This document shows positions 3,492-45,363 of a stretch of DNA of 64,000 nucleotides, piece by piece (within the stretch, counting starts at the first letter, position 1; every line of letters starts with the position of its first letter). This DNA is from Anaerolineae bacterium (GTDB lineage: Bacteria > Chloroflexota > Anaerolineae > JAADDB01), in contig WFQU01000129.1 of NCBI GenBank assembly GCA_015486845.1, positions 3,955-67,954 of the forward strand, in the 5' to 3' direction. The translations under genes were made by a program, and so were the position numbers. The notes beneath the pieces are model-generated. The model had not been told where the DNA came from and searched no databases. It saw only the letters and a list, made by a program, of their open reading frames with translations.

Positions 3492-4055
3492 TCACTTTCC
3501 CACCGTCACAACCAACGTGCCCTGGCTAACCTGGACTTCTTTCACTTTGAGTTCTTCGCCGCTGCCGGAAGCCAGCGCAGAGTTTAGCGCATCGGTCAAC
3601 GCCGAGCGAATCTGTGACGGGAGAGGCAGCGAGCCCAAATACGCTTCTTCGATTCTCACTTGCAAATGACCATCCTTCACAAACGGGGACAGTTTGGTGA
3701 CGACAGTGCCGTGCAAAGCGGTATTTTCCAGTTGGATATCACCCCGCAAATAAATGGCATCTGCCTCGAACCAAACGGTCGCGTTGGCCATGGGCAGATT
3801 TTTACCCGAGAGTTTGTGATGAAAATAAGAGGTCACCTCGGACTCCGTGACGGTCAGCCGGTAACTGTTGGCGCCGACTTTGTTCCAGGACTGTAGCTTT
3901 TTCTCCATGCTGGCAGCCGCTTTCTTGCTAATGGTGACTTTGCGGGCCGGGACAGTGGCTTTCGGTTTGGAACCGATAAGGCTGCACCCGGCGAAAATGA
4001 CCAGGAGTGACGCGAGAGTGACGATGACAGGGACAAAACGTTTGTGTAATCGCAT
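3492..4055 (-). CDS. Hypothetical secreted lipoprotein
   Basis: Internal start MRLHKRFVPVIVTLASLLVIFAGC (lipobox) preceded by an AAGGAG ribosome-binding site. No recognisable family. Confidence 0.45.
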   Translation of the reverse strand: MRLHKRFVPVIVTLASLLVIFAGCSLIGSKPKATVPARKVTISKKAAASMEKKLQSWNKVGANSYRLTVTESEVTSYFHHKLSGKNLPMANATVWFEADAIYLRGDIQLENTALHGTVVTKLSPFVKDGHLQVRIEEAYLGSLPLPSQIRSALTDALNSALASGSGEELKVKEVQVSQGTLVVTVGK

Positions 4056-4084
4056 GGCATGCTCCTTTTCTCTTGCCTCAGCGG

Positions 4085-4612
4085 CTACGAATGGCCGGCC
4101 GAGTCCGGTGCCCACTGTCCAATGGGCGGAAATTTATCCTCTTCGACCATCTGGATAAGTGATTGTAAACTATGCCGGGCGGCCTTGGCTAATGGCGGCG
4201 TAATCCACTTTTCGGCAATGGCTTCCTCGAATTCATCTTCATCCAAAATGTAGTAAGTGTGCCGATCCTGGCGCACCCACAAGTCCAGCTTCAAGTCGGT
4301 CACACAAAGCCGGTTCCCGCAGAAAATAGCTGGTGTGGCGATATCACAATAAAAACCGGTTAACGTTCTCTCTTTGTTATAAGTCTCGGTGATCGCGTAC
4401 CAATGATCCAGAAAGTAATAAGCCCGGCCATAATAAATATCTCCTGCTTGCGCTAACTGGATACCGTGATATTCACGCCCTGTACTTTGGTTGTGGTGTG
4501 GATAAGTCCACTCCACAACCACGTAATTGTCCTTTATCTCGATAGACGTATGGTTGCGGTAGACAACAATAATGCCAGGTAACCGGGTGTATTGAATAAA
4601 CAGATCATCCAT
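4085..4612 (-). CDS. DUF402-family protein (FomD/YgaC-like, RNase G/E-associated). The assignment is tentative.
   Basis: 175 aa. The size and aromatic-rich pattern (DHWYAITE...DLWV) recall DUF402. Confidence 0.4.
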   Translation of the reverse strand: MDDLFIQYTRLPGIIVVYRNHTSIEIKDNYVVVEWTYPHHNQSTGREYHGIQLAQAGDIYYGRAYYFLDHWYAITETYNKERTLTGFYCDIATPAIFCGNRLCVTDLKLDLWVRQDRHTYYILDEDEFEEAIAEKWITPPLAKAARHSLQSLIQMVEEDKFPPIGQWAPDSAGHS

Positions 4613-11944: not shown

Positions 11945-14900
11945 TCAATTTTTGGGTAGCTGGAACGCTTGCACCCGGCAAGTAGCGCTATCCACCACTA
12001 CGATCCGGTTGCCGCGCAGGCTGTCGATACCCAACGGCAGGGTGAACAGGTTCGCACCGCCGAACTGGCCATACGGCGTGCCGTCCGCTTCGTAAATCTG
12101 CACGCTCTTCGTCGTCGGGACGGTCACGGCAATCCGATCAGGCGGCAAGACAGCCAAATGCGGCGCATCCACGCTGTTGTGCTGGCCAACAAACCAGTTT
12201 CGCAAGACATTTCCTTGTGCGTCGAAAGCCCAGATTCGACCGGAAGCCGATTCGGCAGCGAAAATCAGCCCGGAAGGGATAACTGCTACGTCCACAGGCT
12301 GCCCCGGCCCAAACAGTTGCTTTTTACCACCGATCTGTGCCAAGGTGTGACCTTGTTGATCCATCTTGACAACCCGCACACCGCCGGTATCAGCCACGTA
12401 CAGATTGCCGCCCGGCCCGGTCGTTAGGCCACGCGGACGATACCATGGGCTTTCCGGCCGCACTATAGCAATGAGCTTGCCGTCCGGCGTGAAATGTTTG
12501 AGCAATTGCAACACGGAATCCAAAACCCAGACTGTGCCATCTGGCGCCACGGCCACATCGAACGGTTCCTCGAACTGATCAGGGCCACTCCCGGCGCTGC
12601 CCCAAGCGGTAATGAACTTCCCATCTGCGTCCAGTTTGACAATGCGACGGTTGCCACTATCGGCAACGTAAATCTGGCCACAGCGACAAACGGCCACCCC
12701 GCGTGGCTTGGCGAATTCGCCGTCACCGCTGCCACAATGGCCCGTTTGCCACAATTTTTGCACGGCCAACGCGGGCAAAGATTGCCGTTTAGCAGGGAAA
12801 CTCGCGGCGGGTTTTCCGGCTGGTGGCGTATTGGGCTGGGGCGTCTGCCCTGATAATGACGCAGGCGGCATTACAGCCAACGGCGGTGGCGGCAAGTGCA
12901 ACGTTTCTGGAATTTGATCGCCAACAATGGGAAACAAATAAGTGAGCGGTATCACTGATTGCCCCGCGCCGGGCGGCGTCCACGACAGCGTCAGCGCCCG
13001 GCCACCGCCGTTCTGGAAATAGTCTAAACGAATTTTGTGGAATCCGGCATCCAGATGAATAGCGCCTGCTTTAAACATGGCACCGTGGCTGCCGCCGTTA
13101 TCCACCACCAGTTTGTCGTCGATCCAGAGCATGGAACCGTCATCAGAACGGGTGGCGAAGCCGTAACGGCCGCTCTTCGGCGCGGCGATGTAGCCCACCC
13201 AGCGGATGCTGAACGGTTCCCGCAAAATATTATTGGGCATGATGAACAGGTCTCGCCGCACCACCGCCGGCATGCCTTGCCAATTATTGTTGGGATAATA
13301 ATAGCCTACCAAGCCATTGTCACCGATATTCAGTGTGTATAGCGCCCCTCGCCCAACCGTTGCCGAGGGCATGCCTTCCCCGGCCCAGGAGAGACGCAAC
13401 CGCCCCGGCGTTCCGCCGCTATAATATGACAGCGTGAACGGGTAAAACCCAGCTACCAAGAATTTTGTAACTTGCTGGTCGCCGTGATTGGCCGCAATGA
13501 GCACGTCCTGGCCCAAATGCAGCATCGTGCGCCCCGAAGTGGACAGTTTAAACGTGTAATGGCCGAACTTCGGCACCAACAGCGTGCCGTGCAATTTCAG
13601 GGTGAAAGCCCCTTGCAGCGGCGCTTTCTGGCTGAAGTCGAAGTCCACGGCTGCTACTTTCTGATGCAACAAAGGTCGGCCAGACGCCTTATCACCGGCG
13701 TAGAAATCTGCGGTTAAACCACCTGCTTCGTGCAAAGCAGCCACTGGCACCCGATAGCTGAGGAAAAGTGTGCCGCCGAAAGGATCACGATGTTCCCGGA
13801 AGGCGCCATCCGGGTAAAGCTGTTGAAGAAGTGGAATGACCTGCCGGTCGGCCGTGTTGAGAATGTAAACGACATCGCCTTGCACTGGCCGGCGCAGTGG
13901 CACATCGCGCGTCAAATCCAACGATTGGACCTTTTTTTGCCCGATAAGCTTCACGGCGGAGTGATGGCTGTAATCAGGATCCACTAAAATAGTTGTAGTC
14001 GAGGGAAGGCCATGGATAAACTGGCCGATGGCGGATTCTTGCGGGCTGAACGCTAAGACGACGCTGGGGTTATGGACCTGAACGACAAAATAGTCGTGTA
14101 AACCGGCTTTAGCGCCAAACAGGGCAATGAGCAGTAATAACGCGTAGAGCCAGCCCCGCCCTGTTCTCCCCCAAGCGTGTTGCCAGGCGTCGGCGCCTTG
14201 CTGCAAAATCTCTCCGGCCAACAGAAACGCTAACGGCAAGATCATGACTACCCGCCGGGCATTAGGTGCTTCATGCACTACAGTGAAAATGGCCGTGCTG
14301 ATGCCTACCAGGAACCAGGTCGTGTAGAGAAAGCCCAGCGGCTTCCAAAAATAGCGCAGTGCGTAGAAAAGTCCCACTAGCGCCAGGGCGCCGACGATGG
14401 GGCCCAACATGGGTGCGCCGGGCAGGTTGTTCAGCGCGGCTAAGTCGCCCCGGAAATTGAACATTAACAATACTTTGCGGGCATTATCCACCACCGGCTG
14501 GTAGCTGCCGGCCCGGGCGACATCGCCGAGCACGGAAATATGTTGGGTGCGGCTGAGGAAGATATGCCAATGCCGGCTGACATACGCCAAGAGCGGCAAA
14601 CTTCCCAACGCCGCGGAGAGGGTGAAAAGCACCATCCCTTGCAAATCAGTGCGCCAGCGTGACGATTTTTGCACGCCCAGTCGGATTAACCAGTAAATAA
14701 AATAAAGCATGATCCAGGCCGGTACAACCCGAAAAGCCGTGTAGCTATTCAGTCCCAGGGCCAACATCAACCCACCCCACAGCCAGTGGCTGCGTTTGCC
14801 GCTTTCCTGTGCTTTGAGGATGAAATAGACCAACAACGAAAGGAAGAGCGGCACCAAGATCAGTTCATACACGATGCGGCTGATGGTGATGTGCCAGCGG

Positions 14901-15655
14901 GCCACGGCAAACAGCGCTGTGATGGTCAACGCCACCGGTGGCTTGAAGCGCAGCCGGGCTAACGGGTAAAAAGCAGCCATAGTGAGCGTGCCTACGACCG
15001 CCGAGAGCAAGCGCATAGAGACCACGGAGACACCGAAAAGCTGGAAAAAGAGCGCAATCAGATAGGTGAATAGTGTCGCCTGCCCTTCATTCGTTTCGGC
15101 ATAAGGAATGTAAGGGGCACCATGTAGCCATTTGAGTGCATCCAGGCCATTGTTGCCTTCGTCGGACTGACAACCAAAGGGAAAGGAAGCGATATGCCAA
15201 ACGCGCACCACAAACGCTACCATGATGATTAAAAACAGAACGAGCAATTCCCAACGATGCCTGCGGAACCAGGTTTTGCACCGCTCTAAGAACGGCCGCC
15301 GACCAGGCAACACGCCTTCGAAATAACCACTGATCAAGAAGATAAATATACCGATCAACCATAACCAGAATGGCCAGCCGTCGTAGCGATTCGCCCGTTG
15401 CCAAAAGCCGAAGAGGGCACTAAGGCCCAAAAGCAGGCCCGCGCCGGCTAACAATTCTCCTAAGTGCCACCAGGGACGTGCCGCTATCGCCCCATCGGGC
15501 CAAGAGGGTAGCGGTTTAGCTTGCCAAAGGAAAATAACAATGGCCATCGCGAAAAGGATAAAGCCATCCAGGGGGATGGGTTTGGGCACATGCCAGAAAT
15601 GTTCTGCCCACAGAGCAATCAGCACAGCGATGGAAAGCCAGGTAAAACGTTTCAT
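11945..15655 (-). CDS. Large multidomain protein of 1236 aa. The N-terminal half is a polytopic GT-C-fold glycosyltransferase (ArnT/PMT-like, GT39/GT83 type, with a DE motif in the first loop). The C-terminal half has two PA14 domains, a proline-rich linker and a six-bladed NHL-repeat beta-propeller.
   Basis: The true start is MKRFTWLSIAVLIALW at 15655, with an AGGGAG ribosome-binding site supplied by a repeat module. There are more than ten predicted transmembrane segments, and the loop motif FPFGCQSDEGNNGLDALKW fits the DE loop. Two PA14-like segments are present (...FTLKLHGTLLVPKFGHYTFKLSTSGRTMLHL... and ...FSIRWVGYIAAPKSGRYGFATRSDDGSMLWIDDKLVVDNGG...). NHL repeats follow (...PRGVAVCRCGQIYVADSGNRRIVKLDADGKFI... 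repeated). Confidence 0.75.
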   Translation of the reverse strand: MKRFTWLSIAVLIALWAEHFWHVPKPIPLDGFILFAMAIVIFLWQAKPLPSWPDGAIAARPWWHLGELLAGAGLLLGLSALFGFWQRANRYDGWPFWLWLIGIFIFLISGYFEGVLPGRRPFLERCKTWFRRHRWELLVLFLIIMVAFVVRVWHIASFPFGCQSDEGNNGLDALKWLHGAPYIPYAETNEGQATLFTYLIALFFQLFGVSVVSMRLLSAVVGTLTMAAFYPLARLRFKPPVALTITALFAVARWHITISRIVYELILVPLFLSLLVYFILKAQESGKRSHWLWGGLMLALGLNSYTAFRVVPAWIMLYFIYWLIRLGVQKSSRWRTDLQGMVLFTLSAALGSLPLLAYVSRHWHIFLSRTQHISVLGDVARAGSYQPVVDNARKVLLMFNFRGDLAALNNLPGAPMLGPIVGALALVGLFYALRYFWKPLGFLYTTWFLVGISTAIFTVVHEAPNARRVVMILPLAFLLAGEILQQGADAWQHAWGRTGRGWLYALLLLIALFGAKAGLHDYFVVQVHNPSVVLAFSPQESAIGQFIHGLPSTTTILVDPDYSHHSAVKLIGQKKVQSLDLTRDVPLRRPVQGDVVYILNTADRQVIPLLQQLYPDGAFREHRDPFGGTLFLSYRVPVAALHEAGGLTADFYAGDKASGRPLLHQKVAAVDFDFSQKAPLQGAFTLKLHGTLLVPKFGHYTFKLSTSGRTMLHLGQDVLIAANHGDQQVTKFLVAGFYPFTLSYYSGGTPGRLRLSWAGEGMPSATVGRGALYTLNIGDNGLVGYYYPNNNWQGMPAVVRRDLFIMPNNILREPFSIRWVGYIAAPKSGRYGFATRSDDGSMLWIDDKLVVDNGGSHGAMFKAGAIHLDAGFHKIRLDYFQNGGGRALTLSWTPPGAGQSVIPLTYLFPIVGDQIPETLHLPPPPLAVMPPASLSGQTPQPNTPPAGKPAASFPAKRQSLPALAVQKLWQTGHCGSGDGEFAKPRGVAVCRCGQIYVADSGNRRIVKLDADGKFITAWGSAGSGPDQFEEPFDVAVAPDGTVWVLDSVLQLLKHFTPDGKLIAIVRPESPWYRPRGLTTGPGGNLYVADTGGVRVVKMDQQGHTLAQIGGKKQLFGPGQPVDVAVIPSGLIFAAESASGRIWAFDAQGNVLRNWFVGQHNSVDAPHLAVLPPDRIAVTVPTTKSVQIYEADGTPYGQFGGANLFTLPLGIDSLRGNRIVVVDSATCRVQAFQLPKN

Positions 15656-15690
15656 GCGCACACTCCCTTGAAAATAAACTTCTCTGGAGG

Positions 15691-15725
15691 GTAGCCGAGG
15701 GCAATGCCTTCGGCTACCCTCTGTA
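15691..15725 (-). promoter_or_regulatory. Perfect 13-bp-stem hairpin (GAGGGTAGCCGAgggcaatgccTTCGGCTACCCTC) in the 5' leader of the giant GT-C/PA14/NHL gene. A GC-only hairpin (CCCCTCCCCgtatcGGGGAGGGG) lies further upstream at 15785..15807.
   Basis: Seen directly. It lies between the presumed promoter and the AGGGAG Shine-Dalgarno sequence. Confidence 0.35.
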
Positions 15726-16013
15726 CCGTCTTTGAAAAAAAGACCTCTCCCCTGGCTTGCCGCCCAAAGGGGCGGCAAGCCTCCCCCTCCCCGTATCGGG
15801 GAGGGGGAAAAGCTAAGCGCAGCGCCTTCAAATTAGTCGTGTCATTGCGAGCGAAGCGACAGTGTGATCCTCTTTTTGGTCAAGCAATCTCCAATGATAG
15901 TGAGAGAGAGTGCCACGGCCCTGCCGGGCCTCGCAATGACAAACTTCTCTGAAAATAAGTTGATGCAGCAGCGCCAAGGCACAGGGCGTCTAAAAAAATC
16001 AGGCCTCCTTTTA

Positions 16014-16200
16014 GAGGTTCAACTTCTTCAAGAAGTTGAACCTCTCCGGCGTTTTCCGCCCGAGCGCACGGGGGTCAAATCCCCGTGCTACGTCGCCAAG
16101 AAGCCCCCTGAAAGGGGGCTGGCGTTGAGCAGCCCGTTTGCAGCGGATGCTGCCTTGACGTACCCCGCCGCCGCACCGGAATCGGAACCGCATATCCTCA
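16014..16200 (-). repeat. Inverted-orientation partial copy of the composite repeat (hairpin H plus module R2)
   Basis: GAGGTTCAACTTCTtcaAGAAGTTGAACCTC at 16014..16044, followed by the reverse complement of the R2 core (ccgcccgagcgcacgggggtcaaatccccgtgctacgtcgccaagaagccccctgaaagggggct...). Confidence 0.8.
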
Positions 16201-16350
16201 TTGGGTTTCATGTGTTTCTATTATAGCATCAAAAGGCAACGCAGGGGAATGGCACAAAACGCCAGCCGGCGCGTCGCATGCCGGGCGCTGACAGGGGATG
16301 GATACAATGACTCGCTGAACTTTCGCGCCCTGTTGAACATTTGTCGCATT

Positions 16351-16379
16351 TTGGCCTTTCCCCGCCTTTGCGCTATAAT
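16351..16379 (+). promoter_or_regulatory. Putative sigma-70-type promoter (TTGGCC, 17 nt spacer, TATAAT) for the small downstream ORF
   Basis: TATAAT sits at 16374..16379. The -35 element is weak (TTGGCC). Confidence 0.35.
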
Positions 16380-16444
16380 GTAAATGAACAAAAACGCTAA
16401 CTCTAATCCGTTATGCAGTATCTCGACAGGAGACATATCTCAGC

Positions 16445-16615
16445 ATGAGCGAGATTCGCTCTGATTTGCTGTTGCCAACACAGAGAGCAAAATATCACGG
16501 CATCGACGAACATTTGTTGTTAGCCGGTGCCGGCACCTTCCGCATGTGCGTGGGTGTCGGCACCCACTCTGTCTTGCCCGGGATGGTTCTCATTAAGAAT
16601 AGCCATACGCTATAG
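16445..16615 (+). CDS. Small ORF of 56 aa (MSEIRSDLLLPTQRAKYHGIDEHLLLAGAGTFRMCVGVGTHSVLPGMVLIKNSHTL). It has its own ribosome-binding site, promoter and terminator. Function unknown. It is absent from the 60-aa-or-longer ORF track.
   Basis: AGGAG lies 7 nt upstream of the ATG. An intrinsic terminator follows immediately after the stop codon. It sits just upstream of the 2-oxoacid dehydrogenase operon. Confidence 0.35.
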   Translation: MSEIRSDLLLPTQRAKYHGIDEHLLLAGAGTFRMCVGVGTHSVLPGMVLIKNSHTL

Positions 16616-16618
16616 CCA

Positions 16619-16650
16619 CGACCAGCCGCTGAGCTGGTCGTTCTTTATTT
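16619..16650 (+). terminator. Intrinsic terminator (CGACCAGC cgctga GCTGGTCG followed by TTCTTTATTT)
   Basis: Perfect 8-bp GC-rich stem followed by a T-tract. Confidence 0.6.
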
Positions 16651-16690
16651 AGACAGCGTTACATCTATCACAATAAGGAGGTTTTCCATC

Positions 16691-34852: not shown

Positions 34853-36295
34853 TCAATATGCGCCTTCGCCCACAATCACCTTGGGGATCGTGCGCAGCAA
34901 AATAGAGATATCCAGCCCCACAGACCAATTCTCGGCGTAATAAATATCCAGCAAAACCATTTCGTCGAAAGTCAAATGGCTGCGCCCACTCACCTGCCAG
35001 AGACCGGTTAGGCCGGGAAGCACGTCCAGCCGTTTACGATGCCAATCGCTATACGCTTCCACCTCACGCGGCAGGGCAGGACGAGGTCCCACCAAGCTCA
35101 TATTGCCCTGTATAACGTTGATCAATTGGGGCAGCTCATCCAAGCTCAACCGGCGCAAAATCTTGCCCACCCGTGTAATACGCGGGTCATCACGCATTTT
35201 GAAAAGGGGCCCATCCGCTTCGTTATAACGTTCTAAGTCCGGCAATTGTTCCTCAGCATCGTCGACCATGGAACGGAATTTCCAAACTGCGAAAGGTATT
35301 CCTCCTTTGCCGATACGCTCTTGGCGAAACAATGCCGGGCCGCGGCTATCCAATTTGATGGATAAAACAATAAGCAGCCACAACGGGGCCAGCAGAATAA
35401 GCATGAACATACCTAATAGCAAATCCATAGTTCTCTTGACCGTCAAATTCCAGCCGGCAATGCGTATTTCTTTCATGCCAATGATCGGTAGCCCGTTTAG
35501 TTGTTCAATCATAACATTTGTCAGGCGCAGTTGAAAGAAATCGGGCACGATATAAGCGCGTACCCCGGCGTGCTGGCTCTGGGCCAAGACGCGCATGATT
35601 TGGCGATGGTATTGCCACGGCAAAGTAATAATGACCGAATCGACTAAATTCGCATCAAGAATGCCAGGTAGACAGGCAATATCTCCCATACCCTGAAAAG
35701 GTCCGATGTGTTGGTTCCCTCGCTGCGGATTGTCGTCGATAAAGCCAACAATCTGATAGCCGAGATCCGGGGCTGCTAAAATATTGCGAATCACCGCCCG
35801 CCCCACCTCACCAGCGCCTACCACCACCACGCGTTCCACACCAATGCCGCGATGGCGCAAGTAGCGCAAATACAAGTCTAATAGTATTCGAAAAATCGTC
35901 AAAAAGAGAATAATGAGGAATGCTGCATAAAAGAAAATCAATCGAGAATAAACCAGGGGACGGAAGATGAAAACAATCACCATGCTCAACACGATGCCTG
36001 TCGTTGTGCCGTGTAGTATTACGCGAAAATTATCGGTAGCATGCCGCCCTCGTCGCGGTCGATAAGCGCCATCAGCATAATAACTGAGCATCAAAATGAT
36101 AGTCAGCAAAAAGGCAAACGGGATGTAAGCGCTAAAATGCGAGTAATAGGCAGGATCCAAGGCGCGGAACCACTGATATTCATAGCGTATTTTATAGGAG
36201 AGAAAAAAAGCCAGGTTGATGAGCAAAATATCTCCCAATGCTGTCAACCAAGGCAAAGACGGTAAATACTTTGATGTAGGCGTTTGCGACGTCAT
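34853..36295 (-). CDS. Undecaprenyl-phosphate sugar phosphotransferase (WbaP/exopolysaccharide priming glycosyltransferase)
   Basis: Bacterial sugar-transferase C-terminal domain (KRTMDLLLG...DELPQLINVIQGNMSLVGPRP). Confidence 0.85.
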   Translation of the reverse strand: MTSQTPTSKYLPSLPWLTALGDILLINLAFFLSYKIRYEYQWFRALDPAYYSHFSAYIPFAFLLTIILMLSYYADGAYRPRRGRHATDNFRVILHGTTTGIVLSMVIVFIFRPLVYSRLIFFYAAFLIILFLTIFRILLDLYLRYLRHRGIGVERVVVVGAGEVGRAVIRNILAAPDLGYQIVGFIDDNPQRGNQHIGPFQGMGDIACLPGILDANLVDSVIITLPWQYHRQIMRVLAQSQHAGVRAYIVPDFFQLRLTNVMIEQLNGLPIIGMKEIRIAGWNLTVKRTMDLLLGMFMLILLAPLWLLIVLSIKLDSRGPALFRQERIGKGGIPFAVWKFRSMVDDAEEQLPDLERYNEADGPLFKMRDDPRITRVGKILRRLSLDELPQLINVIQGNMSLVGPRPALPREVEAYSDWHRKRLDVLPGLTGLWQVSGRSHLTFDEMVLLDIYYAENWSVGLDISILLRTIPKVIVGEGAY

Positions 36296-37458
36296 CCCAA
36301 GATCTGCCTGTACACACCGATCGTCTCATGAACTGTGCGCACCCAGGTAAAAGAGAGGCTCTTCTGCCGCCCGGCGTGCGCTAAATGCGCCGCCAACTCA
36401 CGATCGTCCAACAACTGTTGCAATCCGTCGGTCCAAGCATCGGCATCCCGTGGTGGGAGCAAAAGGCCTGCGTCGCCGACAACTTCCGGCAAAGCGGAAG
36501 CATCAGCCGCGACAACCGGCGTACCGCAAGCCATCGCTTCGGCTACTGGCAGCCCAAAGCCTTCATACAAGGACGGATAGGCGAAAAGCGTGGCAGCATT
36601 ATACCAATAAGGAAGTTCCTCATCCGGCAAGAAGCCGGTAAAACGGACTACATTCCCCAGATTCAGCGTCGCCACCAAAGATAAAAGCGCTTTATATCCC
36701 CAACCTTGGGCGCCGGCAAGAATGAGCGGCACATCCTGCACGCCGCTCTGTTGTCGCCATTGTGCATATGCTTTAATCAACGTGGTCACATTTTTGCGCG
36801 GCTGCAACGTGCCCAAATAGAAAATGAAACGTGTCGGCAATCCTTTCTGCCGGCGCCACGTTTCGATTTCTGTTGCTGGCAACGGCTTGAAACGGTCGCT
36901 AATGCCGTTGTAAATAGCGTGAACACGTTCCTCCGGCACACCTAGTAATCGCACGACATCTTGCTTACTGCTTTCCGAAACTGTGATGATAGCGGCGGCC
37001 CGTTGCGCTGATTCTTGTGTGATCCAGCTTAAATAACGGCGTTTCCAGGGTGAAAAGGTCTCCGGGTAGCGCAGGAAACTCAGGTCGTGGATCGTGATGA
37101 CCGTCGGCACTTTGGCGGCTACGGGTGCGGCGAAAGCCAAGCCGTGGTATAAGTCACCTTGCAGTTTCTGGATCACGTGGGTTTGCAAAGTTTGTTCCCA
37201 TAGAATGCGTGGCACAGGATGACGGGTGATCTGAGGCGGGCGGTGCAGTAATATGCCCGGCGGGGGTTGATAAGCCGGATCACTGACGAATGCCCAGAAG
37301 AGCATACCTTTTGCCTCGTGACAAAAGGCTGGCAACAGCGCTAATAATGAGCGGCTGTAACCGCTTATGCCCGCGTTACGATATGTTTTCCCCGATGTCA
37401 ACAAAAGTGCGTTGATAAAAACGCGCTTTCCGATTAATTTTTCGCGTACGTTTACCAT
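36292..37458 (-). CDS. Glycosyltransferase family 4 (GT-B, glycosyl transferase group 1)
   Basis: GT4 C-terminal EGFGLPVAEAMACGTPVV motif. Its start overlaps the stop of the gene at 37569..38570, and it overlaps the downstream gene by 4 nt. Confidence 0.8.
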   Translation of the reverse strand: MVNVREKLIGKRVFINALLLTSGKTYRNAGISGYSRSLLALLPAFCHEAKGMLFWAFVSDPAYQPPPGILLHRPPQITRHPVPRILWEQTLQTHVIQKLQGDLYHGLAFAAPVAAKVPTVITIHDLSFLRYPETFSPWKRRYLSWITQESAQRAAAIITVSESSKQDVVRLLGVPEERVHAIYNGISDRFKPLPATEIETWRRQKGLPTRFIFYLGTLQPRKNVTTLIKAYAQWRQQSGVQDVPLILAGAQGWGYKALLSLVATLNLGNVVRFTGFLPDEELPYWYNAATLFAYPSLYEGFGLPVAEAMACGTPVVAADASALPEVVGDAGLLLPPRDADAWTDGLQQLLDDRELAAHLAHAGRQKSLSFTWVRTVHETIGVYRQILG

Positions 37459-37568
37459 AGTGTTCCCATTATAGCACAAAATTTGTGCGTCCAAAGATTC
37501 AGATGGGTCAAGCATTTGGCGGAGAAGGAAAAGTGGAAATTCGTGCCCCCGAGTGCGGCACCGCGGCG

Positions 37569-38570
37569 CTACAGCATTGCATTTCCCCGAGCGATAACAC
37601 GCCGGTAGACCTCGCTAACCCGATGGGCGCTTGTTGATAATGCATAAACCTGCATGCGCTGCCGGCCATCGGTGCGCCGGCCAAAAGCCAGCGCCAACTT
37701 CAATTTGGCGGCTGTGTCTTCTGCCGAACGGTCGCAAATGTAGCAGCCTGCTGTATCCCCAATGACCGTCTTCGCATCTCCTAAATCACCGCTAACGATG
37801 GGCAGATTGCACGCCATGGCTTCTTTGATCACCATAGGCGAACCTTCGTAATCGGAAATCAGCACCAGCGCGTCGGCAGCATTCATATAAACAGGCACTT
37901 TCTCGTGGGGCTGCCCGCTGGCGATGAGTAGATTCACCCGCATGCCACCGTTCTGTAATATTTGTACGGCCTGCCGAATAACCGGCACCCGTTTGTCCGG
38001 GCGCATTTGCCCGGCAAACAACACATACTTATCATGAGGTGACAAACTCAGCCCCAGTGCCTCGCGCGCCGCTGTCTGCGCTAGAGGACGGAAACGTTGC
38101 AGGTTGATGCCCGGCGGAATCACCACCGCTGACGGCCAGGCCAATGTTTCTTGCACCCAGCGGCTAGTAACGATAACCGCAGCGGCATGGCGAGCTAACA
38201 AGCGGGAAAGGGGCGCCGTCAGACCAATTTTGACCTCGCTACCGTGGAAAGTTATCACGGACGGAAGCCGCCGCTGCGCCATCGCGATGAGCCCGGAAAG
38301 CGCGTAATGGGCATGGACTAGCTGGTAGGGCCTACCCTTCAATTGCCGCCAAAAAGGCGGGTAAGCGCGCAAATAGTTAGTCTTGCTGGCTTTGCCGTTG
38401 ACAAAAAACACATCCACACCCACGCCTAAATCCCGTAATGCCTCGACTTCATCGCGAACAAAAGTGCCGAAATCGGGAGCGCCGGGGTGCGGGTATAAAT
38501 TTGCCACCACTAGCACCCGTAGCGATGCTTCTTCCAGGTTGGGGTCGGCAAACAGTTGGATTACACTCAT
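37569..38570 (-). CDS. Glycosyltransferase family 4
   Basis: Start MSVIQLF at 38570. GT-B pattern with the EGSPMVIKEAMAC motif. Confidence 0.75.
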   Translation of the reverse strand: MSVIQLFADPNLEEASLRVLVVANLYPHPGAPDFGTFVRDEVEALRDLGVGVDVFFVNGKASKTNYLRAYPPFWRQLKGRPYQLVHAHYALSGLIAMAQRRLPSVITFHGSEVKIGLTAPLSRLLARHAAAVIVTSRWVQETLAWPSAVVIPPGINLQRFRPLAQTAAREALGLSLSPHDKYVLFAGQMRPDKRVPVIRQAVQILQNGGMRVNLLIASGQPHEKVPVYMNAADALVLISDYEGSPMVIKEAMACNLPIVSGDLGDAKTVIGDTAGCYICDRSAEDTAAKLKLALAFGRRTDGRQRMQVYALSTSAHRVSEVYRRVIARGNAML

Positions 38571-39595
38571 ACTTTCTTCCTGGCAACGATGCGAAACGCG
38601 TTGGCCAGCCAGATAGTCAACCGCGTAGGCACTTTGTGCGTGAGCCAATTGTTGACTTTGGCAATTCTGTTGCTCCGGGAACCACCAAAATAGGCATAGG
38701 CCTGGACATCGAACCCGTAATACGCCATCTCGTCTCGCAATTTCAGCGGGTTGAAAAGGAGCGTTGCATACTGATTGGTCACCGGATCGATGGGACATGT
38801 ACCGTGCTGATAAAAGTGTTGTGGCTTAGCGCCGGTATCCGTGAAATAGTGCACCACGGCCAAGGTCTCGCCTCTACTCAGTCCCGAAGTGCCCCGCGCT
38901 AAACTATCTACGACGTCCTGGTTCAAAAACGGGAAAGCCTCACTAATAATTTCCCGGCGCTGTTGCAAGAAAGACTTGGCGATGGGACGATGATGCCCGC
39001 TGCCTTCTCGACCGTTCTCGAGCATCGCCCATCGCCGCCGCATCCGTTTCACCTGCCATGGATTGGCACCGTTATGAGAATCCGCCACGATGAGCACGCC
39101 GCCGGGGCGCAACACGCGGCACGTCTCTTTGAAAAACCCGGTTATATCTCGGCAATGTGATATGGCGTCCATGGTAAGAATCACGTCGAAGCTATTATCT
39201 TCATATGGCATCGCGGCGGCATCACCCTGGCGGACGAAGACCGGCAGGTCCGCCGGGAAAATAGCGCGAAAAGCGTCGAATGTGTCCACATAATTTTGCT
39301 CGGGTTCCAAGCTATGCGCGGTTTTGGCGCCAGCTAAGGCGAGAAAAATGGATGGAAGGCCGAAATCAGCACCACAATCCAAGATATCCTGGCCGGCGAT
39401 CGGCACCATGGCCAGAGCCAATAGCGATTCTACATGGCGCCTGTAACGGCGCAAAAAACGTTTTTTGCGCAAATGGCCAAATTGTTGCCATAGTTGCGGA
39501 TCATACTGTTGGCGTCGTTCCGGTGCAAAAAGCTCGCCCATGAGCTGAGCTACATCGTATTGTTGCCCTTGCCACTGAAATGTTGTGCTTTTCAT
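38567..39595 (-). CDS. Class I SAM-dependent methyltransferase
   Basis: Motif I (ILDCGADFGLPSIFLA) and the post-I acidic residue. Its stop overlaps the start of the downstream GT4 gene by 4 nt. Confidence 0.75.
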   Translation of the reverse strand: MKSTTFQWQGQQYDVAQLMGELFAPERRQQYDPQLWQQFGHLRKKRFLRRYRRHVESLLALAMVPIAGQDILDCGADFGLPSIFLALAGAKTAHSLEPEQNYVDTFDAFRAIFPADLPVFVRQGDAAAMPYEDNSFDVILTMDAISHCRDITGFFKETCRVLRPGGVLIVADSHNGANPWQVKRMRRRWAMLENGREGSGHHRPIAKSFLQQRREIISEAFPFLNQDVVDSLARGTSGLSRGETLAVVHYFTDTGAKPQHFYQHGTCPIDPVTNQYATLLFNPLKLRDEMAYYGFDVQAYAYFGGSRSNRIAKVNNWLTHKVPTRLTIWLANAFRIVARKKV

Positions 39596-39638
39596 CTAAG
39601 CCCTTCCTGCGGCGTAACGTCTCTACGTCAGTTTTTTC

Positions 39639-40847
39639 TCACGGCACGAAATCCCCATTTTCCACACTCCGCTTTTCATTCTCCACACGCCAGGCTCTAT
39701 TTCCCTGCCCCGCAATGATTTCGCGGTACATGGTCAAATGCTTGGCAGCGACAATATCAGGGTGAAAACGTTTGGCTGCTTCCTGCCGTGCTGCCGCGCC
39801 CCGGCGCAATGTTTCCGCCTGATTCGCTAACGCTTGTGTCATAGCTCGCCGCAAAGCTGTTTGATCTCCCCATGGCACAATCCAGCCAGTGCGTCCGTGT
39901 TCGATCATGTATCGATGGCCGCCCACATCATTGGCGATGACAGCACGACCAGACGCCATGGCTTCGGTGATGACGACAGGAGCCGTTTCCTGTTGGGAGT
40001 TTAACACAAAAACAGTAGCTTGGCGATACGCGCCCAATAACGCAGAACGATCCAGAGCCCCCAAGAAATGGATACGCCCTGCCAAACCTAATTGCTGCAC
40101 CCGGGTCCGGCAGGCCTGGGCGTAGTTCGGGAAAGCATCCATTTCACCGGCGATGCGCAAATGTGCCGCCGGAAAATCTGATGCTATGCCAGCAAACGCG
40201 TCAATAAGCGGCAAGATCCCTTTGCGTGGAATGACCCTGGCCACGGTCAATAAGGCTCCCGGCTCTGCTTCCCCATCGGCAGCAAAGAAACACGGATCTA
40301 CCGGATTTTCGATAGCGAACAGCCGCGCCCGTAGCCAGGGATAAGCCTGGGTCACGTATGGCGAAATAGCCACAACGTTCCGCGCCTGAGGCAACAACCA
40401 GCGCTCAAACCAACGATCGATTTCCCGCGCCACCCGCTTTTTCCTCCCCCAGACGGTATGCGCTTCAGCGAACATAACGCCATGGATGGTAACCACATGC
40501 GGCCATCGACTCCGGATCGCCGCGGCGGCGTAAAGATCAGAACCGTGCCCGTGGACGATATCCGGTTGGATGGTCGAGAGCAGAGCGTGCAACCGGTGCA
40601 TTGCCAGCCCGTGCCAGGTCAAACGGCCAAAACGAGGCTGGGGCGCCACGTGTACAAACAAACGGCCAATCTGGCGGGTGGTCGGTACGGTAATATCGTT
40701 GCGCAGCGTCACCACATGCACTTCGACACCGTTCATGTGGCTGAGTGCTCCAGCCAAAAGCTGCGTCACAGCCTCCACGCCACCAACAACCGGGCCGTCT
40801 TGCACCGGGAAAAGTCCTAATATGGCTACGCGTAACGGTTTAGACAT
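39639..40847 (-). CDS. Glycosyltransferase family 4
   Basis: GT4 pattern (ETAPVVITEAMASGRAVIAN). Confidence 0.8.
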   Translation of the reverse strand: MSKPLRVAILGLFPVQDGPVVGGVEAVTQLLAGALSHMNGVEVHVVTLRNDITVPTTRQIGRLFVHVAPQPRFGRLTWHGLAMHRLHALLSTIQPDIVHGHGSDLYAAAAIRSRWPHVVTIHGVMFAEAHTVWGRKKRVAREIDRWFERWLLPQARNVVAISPYVTQAYPWLRARLFAIENPVDPCFFAADGEAEPGALLTVARVIPRKGILPLIDAFAGIASDFPAAHLRIAGEMDAFPNYAQACRTRVQQLGLAGRIHFLGALDRSALLGAYRQATVFVLNSQQETAPVVITEAMASGRAVIANDVGGHRYMIEHGRTGWIVPWGDQTALRRAMTQALANQAETLRRGAAARQEAAKRFHPDIVAAKHLTMYREIIAGQGNRAWRVENEKRSVENGDFVP

Positions 40848-42309
40848 CGTCTTGTCTCTTCCCCCAAGCGATCATCTGCCGCCGTCTTGCCTCGGCTGCT
40901 TGGAGATAAGCGAAAAGGACGCCCAACAGATAGAAATAGACAATATTGCCGAATTGGTTAGGGCCGGTATCCAGCGTGGCGATAATGCTCATGTAAGCTA
41001 ATGTGGCGGCCACGACAATGCCCCATAAAGCGCGTTCGCCCGGCAAATGCTGGTTGAACCAACGGCAGCCGGCGATGATTTTTCGCCAAAGGGTGATCCA
41101 GAAGCCTAACAACGGGAGAAAGCCCAACAACCCTGCCGAGAGCAGAATATCTAAATAGGTATCATGCGGCATGGGCATCCAGTGCGGCGCATATTGGTAC
41201 CACAAGCCGGCGGCTAAGCTTCGATAGCCAAAATTGGCATAGCCAATACCCCAGAGGGGCGAGGAGAGAAAGTAGCCAATACCGATATCGAACGCTTTGC
41301 CACGATAGCCCACCGTTTCGCCTTGGGCCAGCCGTTCTTTGAACAACGCCGATCGACTGAGCGGGCCCCATAAGAGCAGCACACTAAGCCCAGCTAACGC
41401 CATAAAAGTGAAAAACGGCCGGCGAAAGCGCGGTTCAATGATGGACCAAACGACGAACACGATGAGCAATCCCATATAGCCGGCTCGCGTGTACAGCAGA
41501 CCGACGGCCACACTCATCAAAACGATATATGTGCCGTAAAACCATTTTTGCCCGGCCCGAGTGGCTTGGAAATAACGATACAGAAAATAGGGCATAAGCA
41601 CGTCTAAAATCGTAGCGTGGTAGGCGGGATCGCCCAACAAACCGGTCATACGGTGAAGGTGGGCGGTATACTGAGCAGCTCTTCCCCAGGGATAAAACCA
41701 GATTACCCCGGTAGTCTGTTCGTGCAGGACAAGCACGACAAGATAGCCAGCGATAAGGGGCAAAATGCTCAGTGCCCGGCGCAACTGTTCCCGGCTGTTC
41801 ACATAGAAGCGCACCAGGAAGAAAAGCGAAAGGGGCAGAACCCAGATGTCGAAGAAGGATTGACCGGCCTCTATGAGGCCTTTAACCGAAAGTCGGATGG
41901 ACAGGCCATAGCCGATGAGAAAGAGCAGCAGCCAGCCGGCCAGCCAGGTAAAGTGTGGCCAGGGGCGGCGGCCAGTAGCCCATTGCAAGAAAAGGATGAG
42001 CGCCAAAAGGACAAAGACTAACCGATTATAACCTAAATCCGGCACGCCAGCACCTAAGCTCAAATTCAGATGCCAGAATGGCGCAAAGGGTGAAACGACC
42101 ATCCAGGTGAGCAGGCCGAGGAATGGATCCATTATGGTGAGCACGGCCTGGAAGAAAAGACCAATGGGCGAAAAAAGCCGCTCCGGATGGGGCTGCAAGG
42201 TGCCCCGGATCAGGAAGAAGGCGGCTGCGATGGCAATGCCGCTCTGGGCGCCGATGTTCAGCACGCCACGCCAAAGTCCTCCGGACTGTTTATGGGCAGC
42301 TACTGACAT
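40840..42309 (-). CDS. O-antigen ligase/polymerase-like (Wzy/WaaL family) polytopic membrane protein
   Basis: About 490 aa with 10 to 12 transmembrane segments and a large periplasmic loop, typical of Wzy_C. The start was moved to MSVAAHK at 42309. Confidence 0.65.
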   Translation of the reverse strand: MSVAAHKQSGGLWRGVLNIGAQSGIAIAAAFFLIRGTLQPHPERLFSPIGLFFQAVLTIMDPFLGLLTWMVVSPFAPFWHLNLSLGAGVPDLGYNRLVFVLLALILFLQWATGRRPWPHFTWLAGWLLLFLIGYGLSIRLSVKGLIEAGQSFFDIWVLPLSLFFLVRFYVNSREQLRRALSILPLIAGYLVVLVLHEQTTGVIWFYPWGRAAQYTAHLHRMTGLLGDPAYHATILDVLMPYFLYRYFQATRAGQKWFYGTYIVLMSVAVGLLYTRAGYMGLLIVFVVWSIIEPRFRRPFFTFMALAGLSVLLLWGPLSRSALFKERLAQGETVGYRGKAFDIGIGYFLSSPLWGIGYANFGYRSLAAGLWYQYAPHWMPMPHDTYLDILLSAGLLGFLPLLGFWITLWRKIIAGCRWFNQHLPGERALWGIVVAATLAYMSIIATLDTGPNQFGNIVYFYLLGVLFAYLQAAEARRRQMIAWGKRQDDV

Positions 42310-42316
42310 AATCCGT

Positions 42317-43546
42317 TCATCCTTGTCCCAGAATATCGGCGTAGACCGCTTCGACGCCGCGCACAGTTTGGGCAGCGCTGAAATGTTGCCGCACATGCTC
42401 TCGCCCCGCCTGCCCCAAAGCAACCGCTTGGGCCGGATAGGATAACAGCCGTTCAATGGCAGATGCCATGGCCATGGCATCTCCTGGCGGTACCAGTAGA
42501 CCGGTTTGACCCGCTTGCACGATTTCAGGCACCGCCCCGGCGTCGGTGGCTATCACCGGCAACTGTGCGGCCATCCCTTCGATAAGCACCCGGCCGAACG
42601 GCTCCGGCTCCACCGAGGCGTGCACCAATAGATCCAGCGACGGTAACAAGCCCGGAATATCTTCCTGGTGTCCCAAGAAATGGATACGCTGAGCAATGCC
42701 GGAAGATTCGGCCAAATGGTGCAAAGTCTGTGCATAGCTTTCTGCGCCGACTTCCGGCTCGCCAACAATCCAAGCGTGAAAAGCTGGGTTTTTACGTGCA
42801 ATTTGCGCCACGGCTTGCAAAAAAATGTGTTGTCCTTTCCATGGCACAATGCGCCCGACCAGGCCCGCCAAAGGCCCGTCCGGCGGTGTTTGCCACGCCT
42901 GCCGCAGTGCGGGATCGGCAACAGTGGAAAAATCCTCCACGTCCAAGCCGTTGTAGACAACGGTCAAACGCCTTTGCAACACGCCTAAGGTCGCCATCTG
43001 ATCAGCAACGGCGCCGGAAATGCAAAGATAACGAGCGACGCTCTGGTCCAGCCAGCGATCAAAAATAGTCCAGCTATCCCAGCCGCGCACATGGCAGACC
43101 AATGGCAGCCGGTTCATTTTAGCAGCCCAAATAGCGCCTCGGTTAACAGTAAGCCGATCGTTGACATGTACTAGATCCGGCTGGACTTGGGCCATCACGC
43201 GTGCTAACCTTTTTGCCTGGGGATAAAAGCGGCGGGCAATACGTCCCATGAAGCCAATGCCGTGCCAAATGGGACGCAAAAATGTTTGCCGGCGCATGAA
43301 ATCCCCTACATACCCTTGCCGAGCCCGATCTACGCTTGCACCGTATTGCACCGGCTGTCCCTGGCTGGAGGGAAAGTCGATGACCTCAACACCCAAATCG
43401 ACAAACCGTTGCCGGCGCCGCTGCCCAGCCGCTAAAATCAACGTGGGGCGGTAATGATTGGGCAGCTTGCGGAGGAGATATTCTAAACTGGCCAACGATC
43501 CGGCCGCCCGGGGGGCCAGATCGACGTACAAAATGCGTTTCTCCAT
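42317..43546 (-). CDS. Glycosyltransferase family 4
   Basis: Start MEKRILYV at 43546. GT4 C-terminal EPFGRVLIEGMAAQLPVIAT motif. Confidence 0.8.
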   Translation of the reverse strand: MEKRILYVDLAPRAAGSLASLEYLLRKLPNHYRPTLILAAGQRRRQRFVDLGVEVIDFPSSQGQPVQYGASVDRARQGYVGDFMRRQTFLRPIWHGIGFMGRIARRFYPQAKRLARVMAQVQPDLVHVNDRLTVNRGAIWAAKMNRLPLVCHVRGWDSWTIFDRWLDQSVARYLCISGAVADQMATLGVLQRRLTVVYNGLDVEDFSTVADPALRQAWQTPPDGPLAGLVGRIVPWKGQHIFLQAVAQIARKNPAFHAWIVGEPEVGAESYAQTLHHLAESSGIAQRIHFLGHQEDIPGLLPSLDLLVHASVEPEPFGRVLIEGMAAQLPVIATDAGAVPEIVQAGQTGLLVPPGDAMAMASAIERLLSYPAQAVALGQAGREHVRQHFSAAQTVRGVEAVYADILGQG

Positions 43547-43550
43547 GATT

Positions 43551-44765
43551 TTACGGCTGTTTGCGTTGAACAGAACGGCGCCGCCAGGTACGATCGATGC
43601 CTTCCAAGAGAAAAGCGAGCAATAGACCAACCAGTAGAGAAGCCCCAAACGCAACGGTCAAGTACCGTCCCATTTGAGTCGGTGCACGCTGGGCCGGGGT
43701 TTTGTTGCCTTTGTCCAACCAGACTAAATAGCCGGCGTGCAGCGCCTGGTTCTCTTTGATCTTCGCTTCATTGAGCTTGTTGAGCAAGAAGCTGTATTGT
43801 TGACGGGCATTAGCCACGTTATCCGAGAGCGTTTGATATTGCCCTTCAATGCCCACCAATTCGGCCAACCGGCTACCTTGTTGGGTGGCCAGCAAATCAT
43901 AGCGTTGTTGGGCGGCTTCCTGCCCGGCGACGAGCGCCTCTTGTTGGGACGCGTTGGTAAAATTGGATTGTGCTAAGCCACGATAAAAGTCAGCCGTGGC
44001 GGTTGCCTGCCGAGCTTCGGCCTCGCTGCTCATTTTGAGGGCTGATTCTGCTTGCTGGCGGTAACTTGCCGCCAATGCTTTGGCTTGATCCGCTTTGACG
44101 GTTGCCATTTGTTGGCTGTTACGGTAGGCCCGTATGGTGGCTTGCACAGCCTCGGCCTCCGCTTGCACTGAATTGATGTTGTAACGCAAACGAAAGGTTG
44201 TCAAGGCGGATTGGGCCGCCGCCAGACGCTTTTCCTGGGCGTGAACCTGCTCTTCGATGAACTGCCGGGACTGAATAACCGGCAGAGAGCGCTCCTGGCG
44301 AAATGCTTCCAACGCGTTGGCCACATGCGTGTCGACGACAGTGCGGGCCAAAGTCGCCGTTGGCTCATAGAAAATCACGACAACGTCAGCCTCATCCGGG
44401 ATGGGCCACATTTCGTAATTGATGTCTGCCGGCGTTTTGTGCAAGTGTAAGTCTTTGATGGTCTTCCAGGCGACTGAGTTCTCCCGCAATGTCTTGATGA
44501 AAGCGTCCCGTGTGGCTCGGGCCGACTCGCTGGCCCCCACAGAACGGTAGGAGCCGTAAATCGCGACATTATCTGCCTGGGTAGGCAAAGCTTGCAAGCG
44601 CACGGTGGCCTGATACCGGGGGGGCTTACGAGCCTGATAATAATACACTCCGCCGACGGTTACGACGACCAAAAGGGTAATCAGCCACCAGCGCCGCCAA
44701 ATGACGTTCAAATAAGCTTGTATGTCGTTCAAGTTTCTTTTGACCTCTTTCGAGACAGGCTCCAT
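43551..44765 (-). CDS. Polysaccharide chain-length determinant (Wzz/GumC-like co-polymerase) without a kinase domain
   Basis: N-terminal transmembrane helix, a long coiled-coil periplasmic region, and a C-terminal transmembrane helix (LLVGLLLAFLL). About 404 aa. Confidence 0.65.
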   Translation of the reverse strand: MEPVSKEVKRNLNDIQAYLNVIWRRWWLITLLVVVTVGGVYYYQARKPPRYQATVRLQALPTQADNVAIYGSYRSVGASESARATRDAFIKTLRENSVAWKTIKDLHLHKTPADINYEMWPIPDEADVVVIFYEPTATLARTVVDTHVANALEAFRQERSLPVIQSRQFIEEQVHAQEKRLAAAQSALTTFRLRYNINSVQAEAEAVQATIRAYRNSQQMATVKADQAKALAASYRQQAESALKMSSEAEARQATATADFYRGLAQSNFTNASQQEALVAGQEAAQQRYDLLATQQGSRLAELVGIEGQYQTLSDNVANARQQYSFLLNKLNEAKIKENQALHAGYLVWLDKGNKTPAQRAPTQMGRYLTVAFGASLLVGLLLAFLLEGIDRTWRRRSVQRKQP

Positions 44766-45363
44766 CTCTATTTTATTGAGACATGGGCACAAAAGTATAG
44801 CATAGCAAAACGTTTTCTCAAAAGCGTAGTTGCTAATAACCTCGGGCTATTGGTATAGCCAGTCGTGACTCATCCGAAAACAGGCTCACCGCGGAATACG
44901 CAACGTGCGCCGCGGTCAAATTAGTGTGATTTTAGCAACTATTTGCTTCCGAAACTGTAACTGCTCGTTTCTGATAAAACAGTGGCGCCGGCACGGGCCG
45001 GCGGCCGGCCTGTGCCGGCACGCAGACAGGCGCACCATAGCGGCTGAAAACGCCCCCTATCCCCCAACCTTGGGGGGAGCAACATGCCCCAGCCCTCCGA
45101 AAAAGGGTCTTGGCTACGCCGGATCTGGTTCGTTGCGGGCAGCACTCCCTCTCGCCACGCTGCGGTCTGCCGCTATCCTGTTGGCAACGAGCGCATAGCC
45201 CGTGTTGTCGTCGTGCGTTGGTATGCGCTTAATCGTGGCTAATCGTATGAGCCGGGTCTGATAACATGAATTTTCGTGTTGCTGGCGTAATATATTTGAG
45301 ATCAGCGTTGATCAGCGTTCTATTTTCAAATGAAACAAAATTGCTGGTCGCAAGCAGCTTTGT

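Follow-up and report, generated by a model that had tools for sequence, protein, structure and literature searches.

A GT-C-type membrane protein with appended PA14 and NHL modules from an Anaerolineae bacterium, a putative extracytoplasmic glycosyltransferase of a Chloroflexota-rich subfamily

Among the membrane glycosyltransferases of the GT-C type, the protein O-mannosyltransferases (PMT, family GT39) possess a MIR domain that has been proposed to bind already glycosylated stretches, and in TMTC1-4, whose PMT_2-like core is joined to TPR repeats, the TPR region is thought to bind the protein substrate. ArnT (GT83), the undecaprenyl-phosphate-L-Ara4N:lipid A transferase, is without lectin or propeller modules. 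The mycobacterial EmbC and AftD are described as GT-C enzymes with carbohydrate-binding modules (PMC3044687; bioRxiv 10.1101/2019.12.22.885152). The present analysis concerns a gene on the minus strand (positions 11945-15655) of a 64,000-nucleotide stretch of an Anaerolineae genome (Chloroflexota; assembly GCA_015486845.1, contig WFQU01000129.1, positions 3,955 to 67,954 of the forward strand), hereafter the window. It encodes a GT-C-type membrane core fused to two PA14 domains and a six-bladed NHL beta-propeller, a combination that had been proposed in an earlier note made from the DNA letters and is borne out here by Pfam and by AlphaFold2 models. The protein is read, with confidence a little better than even, as an extracytoplasmic lipid-phosphate-sugar GT-C transferase belonging to a Chloroflexota-rich PMT_2-type subfamily, which would hold a cell-surface glycan through its second PA14 domain (PA14-2) and its propeller.

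The gene is real and intact, and the fusion that it encodes is under selection. Its reading frame runs unbroken from an ATG at 15655-15653 to a stop codon at 11945-11947, and a 100%-identical protein (P0001) is publicly deposited. The same PMT_2 + PA14 + NHL set occurs in over 120 homologues of full length, with identities of 39-84% and lengths of about 1190-1325 aa. A frameshift or an artefactual joining of two separate genes, which the earlier note had named among the outcomes that would undo its proposal, was rejected because the frame is uninterrupted and so many orthologues share its length and architecture. The mechanically called open reading frame (ORF) extends 5' to a TTG at 15778, and this start was rejected as well. 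The ATG is taken as the real start because a Shine-Dalgarno sequence lies 7 nt upstream, the orthologue alignments begin at residue 1 (MxRL...), and GGAGTGTGCGCATG recurs unchanged in the nearest relatives, L081 and L082 (84% identity), which keep both the Shine-Dalgarno sequence and the ATG and differ in the sequence 5' of GGAGTGTGCGCATG.

Three domain types exceeded their Pfam cut-offs. PMT_2 (PF13231) matched residues 195-321 with 50.7 bits (cut-off 26.1), PA14 (PF07691) matched in two stretches with 107.7 bits (cut-off 24; best stretch 812-904), and NHL (PF01436) reached 79.3 bits (cut-off 20). The AlphaFold2 model of residues 1-700, built from a 70-sequence alignment, had a predicted local distance difference test score (pLDDT) of 89.3 and a predicted template modelling score of 0.88, while the model of residues 520-1236 (pLDDT 91.2) comprised an alpha/beta domain, two PA14 beta-sandwiches, a disordered linker and 24 strands arranged as six four-stranded blades.

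In Foldseek comparisons of the membrane part, all matches at E<=1e-3 were GT-C enzymes, with AglB (9e-9), ArnT (5e-8), STT3, PglB, AftA, ALG12/9 and Pmt1/2/4 matched at identities of 10-17%. The helix arrangement of the modelled polytopic core is that of the GT-C superfamily, and its assignment as a GT-C core of the PMT_2 type is supported. Solved GT-C structures were not found by sequence at E<=10, either by phmmer with residues 1-600 or with a 7-sequence profile of residues 121-645, so only the fold comparison linked the core to solved GT-C enzymes. The fold is about equally distant from STT3/AglB, PMT and ArnT. Among the Pfam matches of the protein at E<=0.1 there was no PF02366, MIR or PMT_4TMC domain that would place it in GT39, weak PF02366 matches occurring only in some orthologues, and the phmmer and profile searches gave no sequence relationship to ArnT. 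Given these absences and the equidistant fold, the GT39 or GT83 identity favoured in the earlier note could not be upheld. The search for GT66 membership gave no STT3 (PF02516) match by Pfam and no WWDxG-type motif anywhere in the protein, and the search for the Emb/Aft arabinosyltransferases (GT53 and relatives) gave no Arabinose_trans-type domain. Similarity to TIGR03663 (Agl23) was weak, covering residues 139-490 with 25.7 bits against a cut-off of 126.25, far too low for membership.

Measured against the described systems, the protein shares 12-17% identity (locally 22%) with PMT and TMTC1-4, from which it differs in its PA14 and NHL accessory modules, in four additional N-terminal helices and in the absence of the PF02366, MIR and PMT_4TMC domains. 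Its identity to ArnT is 12-13%. To our knowledge, Chloroflexota are generally held to lack lipopolysaccharide, and a lipid A substrate is therefore not expected. EmbA/B/C and AftD, which are actinobacterial, show no sequence similarity to the protein and carry their own carbohydrate-binding modules where this chloroflexotal protein has PA14 and NHL; Emb and AftD were also weaker structural matches than PMT, ArnT and the oligosaccharyltransferases (OST).

The number of helices and the topology are predictions from the secondary-structure listing of the model and from loop charges. The N-terminal extension, whose modelled helices span residues 2-22, 28-45, 64-86 and 94-109, is present in orthologues and weakly conserved (32% identity); the polytopic region of about 550 aa described in the earlier note did contain the GT-C membrane part, and these four helices before the canonical first transmembrane helix (TM1) had been overlooked. 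Residues 117-136 form a strongly basic segment with seven Lys/Arg that is placed in the cytoplasm. As 70-sequence means, Lys and Arg in short loops amount to 24.8 per 109 residues inside versus 3.8 per 38 outside, and because of this bias the first loop and the whole C-terminal half are placed outside the membrane, which fits the extracytoplasmic PA14 and NHL domains assumed beforehand. The alpha/beta domain that follows the last membrane helix in the model is part of the conserved unit found in 563 cluster representatives (E<=1e-30). Since a soluble domain is thus retained next to the membrane part, the PA14 and NHL modules are appended to it and are not substitutes for it, as had been claimed.

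The first outer loop (EL1) is the most conserved segment of the protein, with a mean identity to it of 80% in the 70-sequence alignment against 51% for the membrane core. D165, E166, N168 and N169 are among the residues invariant in all 70 sequences, which bears out the acidic DE-loop motif reported in the earlier note, and the D-E pair remains near-invariant in 50 distant relatives (28-36% identity). In the modelled helix listing, D165-E166 is located 10-12 residues past the helix taken as TM1, and we infer a catalytic role for the pair by comparison with where GT-C enzymes carry their acidic residue. Further invariant polar clusters comprise RWHxTxSRIxYE at 253-264 (R253-W254-H255, S259-R260 and Y263-E264 being the invariant residues), NTYT at 303-306, R309, GD...NNLP at 403-412 (G403-D404 and N410-L411-P412) and HEAPxARR at 461-468 (H461-E462-A463-P464 and R467-R468). 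All of them sit in loops predicted to face outside, a pattern that would be expected of a GT-C active site binding a lipid phosphate.

The PA14 pair has its nearest solved relatives in the PA14 dyads of RsgI3 and RsgI4 (PDB 6qe7 and 6qdi; phmmer E 5e-31 and 6e-24; Foldseek E ~1e-21 at 24% identity), clostridial anti-sigma factors that are single-pass sensors of pectin or xylan and control sigma factors. In these proteins the DcisD-N signature holds the Ca2+ that contacts the sugar, and modules without the signature bind no polysaccharide (PMC6852018). RsgI3 resembles the present protein in being an extracytoplasmic tandem with a single module that has the DcisD Ca2+/sugar site; the competent module, however, is the first in RsgI3 and the second here, and here the dyad is joined to an enzyme. 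Both PA14 beta-sandwiches are present, and the DcisD-N/Q signature occurs, by sequence, in PA14-2 only. In the phmmer alignments to RsgI4/RsgI3, D838-D839 stands in register with DD/DN and Y879-F-Q881 with the Y-x-N/Q loop; D838, D839 and Y879 are invariant in the 70 sequences, and PA14-2 is the best conserved outer module (57% identity). PA14-2 is therefore likely to provide a Ca2+-dependent carbohydrate-binding site. PA14-1, with STSG where SDDG is expected and a conservation of only 34%, is unlikely to be lectin-competent. Of the two lectin-like modules postulated earlier, PA14-2 thus looks like a working one, and PA14-1 lacks the motif.

The Pro-rich spacer quoted in the earlier note was found at residues 921-948. 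It belongs to the least conserved part of the protein (23% identity, 19% gaps), which is also the sole part modelled with low confidence, pLDDT falling below 50 at about 929-953, and it is disordered in the model. The propeller that follows matched six-bladed NHL domains with Foldseek, Thin, TRIM2, TRIM71 and Brat being among the matches (template modelling score 0.84-0.89 on the protein), and NHL structures were also recovered by profile search; the modelled propeller is closed and has six blades. Its conserved residues belong mostly to the structural repeat motif, and for this reason no ligand is proposed for it. The features of the gene and of its leader are listed in Table 1.

Table 1. Features of the gene, its product and its leader (positions refer to the window)
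Feature	Residues	Positions	Strand	Basis or remark
Complete gene: GT-C + alpha/beta domain + 2 PA14 + linker + NHL		11945..15655	(-)	1236 codons plus stop
N-terminal extension, four membrane helices before canonical GT-C TM1	1-120	15296..15655	(-)	Hydropathy, AlphaFold2
GT-C transmembrane core, read as 11 helices (AlphaFold2: 134-525)	121-525	14081..15295	(-)	PMT_2 at 195-321
EL1, motif GCQSDEgNNGLDALKWL...YAETNEGQAT, putative catalytic D165-E166	156-198	15062..15190	(-)	70-sequence alignment
Extracytoplasmic alpha/beta domain right after last membrane helix (predicted)	526-645	13721..14080	(-)	AlphaFold2, high pLDDT
PA14-1, degenerate, without DcisD calcium/sugar signature	646-775	13331..13720	(-)	Pfam first stretch, AlphaFold2 beta-sandwich
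PA14-2, DcisD-type signature (D838-D839, Y879, Q881)	776-912	12920..13330	(-)	Pfam 812-904, RsgI alignment
Pro-rich flexible linker, contains PPPPLAVMPPASLSGQTPQPNTPPAGKP	913-965	12761..12919	(-)	pLDDT, conservation
Six-bladed NHL beta-propeller	966-1236	11948..12760	(-)	Pfam NHL, 24 AlphaFold2 strands
Shine-Dalgarno AAGGGAG, 7 nt before ATG		15663..15669	(-)	Read from sequence
Leader hairpin, 12-bp perfect stem, 17-nt arms at 94%		15687..15721	(-)	Inverted-repeat listing, fold
Two more back-to-back 12-bp perfect GC-rich hairpins		15754-15781, 15782-15808	(-)	Specific to this genome

In the favoured reading, the membrane core of about 15 helices would bind, on the outer side of the cytoplasmic membrane, a sugar linked to polyprenyl phosphate, the invariant D165-E166 in the first outer loop would activate the acceptor or hold a metal, and the acceptor that receives the sugar would be held by the appended outer modules. 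Among these, PA14-2 would act as a Ca2+-dependent lectin, the propeller would be carried on the flexible Pro-rich tether, and PA14-1 would be a degenerate spacer or a partner module. The acceptor would most likely be a cell-surface glycan, that is, a wall-associated polysaccharide or glycoconjugate, to which the enzyme may stay bound while it is growing or once it is already glycosylated, in the manner of EmbC and AftD. We infer the lipid-linked donor, the topology and the glycan acceptor from these features. Such an enzyme would extend the principle of a GT-C core plus carbohydrate-binding module beyond mycobacteria, and its soluble PA14 and NHL modules could be expressed as baits for the natural acceptor. 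Little is understood of the chloroflexotal cell envelope, and we know of no characterised outer-face glycosyltransferase from this phylum.

The fusion is no rarity, contrary to the impression of unusualness given by its first description. A one-genome-per-species pattern scan yielded 97 relatives, and all 80 that were listed are Chloroflexota, mostly Anaerolineae and Caldilineales and including Candidatus Amarolinea aalborgensis and Litorilinea aerophila. When residues 121-645 (GT-C plus alpha/beta domain) were searched with HMMER against 1.84 billion cluster representatives, 563 passed E<=1e-30 and 4349 passed E<=1e-10; the proteins retrieved are about 570 to 1440 aa long. PMT_2 (E<=0.001) was present in all 50 distant members sampled, PA14 in 42/50 and NHL in 20/50, and NPCBM or Tachylectin-type sugar-binding modules occurred in single members. 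Judged from these sequences, the GT-C + PA14 + NHL fusion is the norm of a large, unstudied subfamily and standard in Anaerolineae. A full-text literature search for GT-C or GT39 in combination with PA14 found nothing relevant. In several long-read assemblies (L067, CP059258.1; L077; L079; L024), the orthologue is broken up, its three or four parts being ORFs that overlap in differing frames, which reflects either homopolymer sequencing errors or gene decay.

The module counts bear on the nature of the acceptor, since PA14 is commoner than NHL in the family and this gives a modest lean towards a glycan over a protein. A protein O-glycosyltransferase resembling PMT or TMTC, which we regard as rather unlikely, would take a hexose from polyprenyl-phosphate and attach it to Ser/Thr of proteins that are secreted or form the S-layer; the propeller would then recognise the protein substrate, as the TPR region may do in TMTC, and PA14 would bind stretches already glycosylated, as has been proposed of MIR in PMT. 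The parallel is weakened by the missing PF02366, MIR and PMT_4TMC matches and by a fold that is equally near ArnT and STT3/AglB. Moreover, constraint among the outer modules is strongest on the lectin-type PA14-2 and not on NHL, PA14 outnumbers NHL more than twofold among the distant members, and no candidate substrate protein is encoded nearby.

Gene arrays in related genomes provide a further line of evidence for the glycan-directed transferase. Among 52 loci whose sequence reaches far enough upstream, 36 have between one and three GT-C paralogues ahead of the orthologue on the same strand; a few of these cases may be frameshifted copies. A full array, with the orthologue as its last gene, occurs in L014, L018, L024, L025, L028, L056, L064, L073 and L078 and is absent from the window. 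It begins in most cases with one or two DUF2298/Chlor_Arch_YYY (TIGR03662) proteins, followed by a GT-C protein of about 590 aa, by a protein of about 1100 aa (paralogue B) that is a TIGR03663 (Agl23-family) member at 252.4 bits with a C-terminal NHL propeller, by a PMT_2 + PA14 protein of about 1000 aa (paralogue C), and finally by the orthologue. Paralogue C shares 28-29% identity with the present protein over residues 130-910 and retains the D-E motif. The GT-C and PA14 regions of the protein recur in paralogue C and its NHL domain in paralogue B. The genes 3' of the orthologues vary and are of a housekeeping kind (ppk, aconitase, sucCD, a two-component system). That identical module types, PA14 and NHL, recur on differing GT-C cores within an array suggests one common substrate, and the arrays with an Agl23-family member would suggest a single multi-step outer-face glycosylation pathway. 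A 1624-aa ORF at L080:4156-9030 (+) fuses a PMT_2/PMT-type GT-C to a complete DUF2298 (Chlor_Arch_YYY) domain, which suggests that these two families of membrane proteins are functionally linked.

It is tentatively possible, as an extension of the favoured reading, that the protein and the paralogue arrays represent a Chloroflexota-specific, undescribed outer-face glycan assembly line, akin in logic to the mycobacterial machinery for arabinogalactan and lipoarabinomannan. If so, several lipid-phosphate-sugar transferases sharing PA14 and NHL would work one after another on a single envelope polymer peculiar to the lineage, such as a wall polysaccharide or the sheath of filamentous Anaerolineae, a class whose members include filaments that cause bulking in wastewater, Candidatus Amarolinea among them. 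As a candidate pathway, the arrays would lend themselves to deletion or reconstitution.

Agl23 (TIGR03663) and Chlor_Arch_YYY (TIGR03662/DUF2298) are families of Archaea and Chloroflexota that adjoin orthologues of the present gene in many Anaerolineae, whereas neither is encoded beside it in the window. Haloarcula Agl23 has been linked to dolichyl-phosphate-hexose flipping and moves lipid-linked glycans in liposomes (PMC11182771). This in vitro flippase activity, together with the weak TIGR03663 similarity at residues 139-490 and the true Agl23-family paralogue of the arrays, lends something to the idea that the protein is not primarily a transferase, and acts instead as an Agl23-like helper or scaffold for the flipping of lipid-linked sugars, or as a sensor or anchor of the envelope that binds wall material through PA14 and NHL; the tandem PA14 domains of RsgI3 and RsgI4 do serve as polysaccharide sensors (PMC6852018). 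Such a role is nevertheless considered improbable, as the TIGR03663 score is about one fifth of the cut-off, the invariant D-E pair and the outer polar clusters match the pattern of a working GT-C active site, and the protein is without a cytoplasmic signalling domain.

Several points count against a glycan-directed transferase. We know of no activity, ligand or phenotype for any member of the family. The best-known NHL propellers bind protein or RNA or are catalytic, and this fits a protein acceptor equally well. Neither a GT2 polyprenyl-phosphate sugar synthase nor any other glycan gene adjoins the gene, which has MoeA and an aminotransferase gene downstream and, upstream, a 1-kb intergenic region followed by a divergent pyruvate dehydrogenase operon. 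The sole glycan cluster of the window lies 19 kb away, beyond unrelated operons. The gene is also solitary in this lineage: in the 84%-identity relatives it likewise diverges from the dehydrogenase operon, and a relative at 69% has a solitary copy. The argument from arrays is therefore borrowed from relatives at 40-45% identity. Over the whole 64 kb no GT2 donor synthase, flippase or GT-C paralogue was found. Two ORFs of 551 and 1043 aa (51-56 kb) that had been considered as GT-C paralogues were rejected, being a solute-binding protein and a class A penicillin-binding protein. In this window the gene is an ordinary, solitary family member; the more interesting lead is the multi-GT-C array of related genomes, outside the window.

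The distant glycan cluster (34853-44792, minus strand) is Wzy-dependent and encodes a Bac_transf initiating sugar transferase, a Wzz chain-length determinant, a polymerase/ligase-like Wzy_C protein, a methyltransferase and four glycosyltransferases of the GT4 family. Repeat units of the Wzx/Wzy type, such as those this cluster might supply, would be attached or extended if the protein were an OST-like en-bloc transferase, ligase or polymerase acting on a polyprenyl-diphosphate oligosaccharide, an explanation to which little probability is given here. STT3 and AglB do appear among the fold matches of the core, but OST, PMT and ArnT score too much alike to be told apart; in addition, the protein has neither a WWDxG-type motif nor an STT3 match, and unrelated operons separate it from the cluster.

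The leader of the gene contains a hairpin that had been described with a 13-bp perfect stem. The hairpin exists, its perfect stem is 12 bp, and it is not conserved in L081 and L082, in which the region upstream of the Shine-Dalgarno sequence fails to align with the window, the hairpins of the window are not seen, and other GC-rich hairpins are present. It belongs to a run of three strong hairpins, and the predicted fold of 15640-15830 has an energy of -106 kcal/mol (z -8.2). A riboswitch or other known RNA was rejected because the leader had no Rfam match at E<=1 and its hairpins are not kept in the 84%-identity relatives. The lack of conservation also makes a dedicated regulator improbable. 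The hairpin motifs do not occur elsewhere in the 64-kb window, so no repeat family can be defined here; they look like strain-specific inserted palindromic elements. The derivation of the Shine-Dalgarno sequence from a repeat, proposed on the strength of a 19-nt direct repeat at 79%, was abandoned, GGAG being kept in relatives whose upstream sequence does not align.

The intergenic region between the gene and that for pyruvate dehydrogenase E1-alpha (15656-16690) is dense in perfect GC-rich palindromes over about 1 kb. Besides the three hairpins of the leader it includes an inverted repeat whose 12-nt arms (15840-15851 / 15930-15941) are 78 nt apart and, at 16013-16045, a perfect palindrome of 16 nt. 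The palindromes of this region had no Rfam match and are not repeated in the window. Of the region, 15640-16000 was compared with the closest relatives and is not conserved in them. An element of about 45 nt, AAGAGGATCAC.CT.TCGCTT.GCTC.CAA.GACACG.CT, at about 15832-15875 (minus strand), is common to the window and the 84%-identity relatives; it was matched by reading the sequences, MAFFT having put the two copies out of register. In L081 it lies about 60-100 nt 5' of the ATG and in the window about 130 nt farther from the start codon, as if the hairpins had been inserted between the element and the Shine-Dalgarno sequence. The element could be a promoter or operator region.

Two other genes of the window concern the cell envelope. 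A 207-aa protein (3492-4115, minus strand) has a weak, borderline match to LmeA-like phospholipid-binding proteins (PF11209, 28.5 bits against a cut-off of 27.3). Mycobacterial LmeA is linked to lipomannan elongation, and the match is curious beside the analogy with Emb and AftD. The 1043-aa class A penicillin-binding protein mentioned above (53034-56165, plus strand), with transglycosylase and transpeptidase domains, carries a C-terminal extension of about 370 aa that includes a bacterial Ig-like Big_7 domain.

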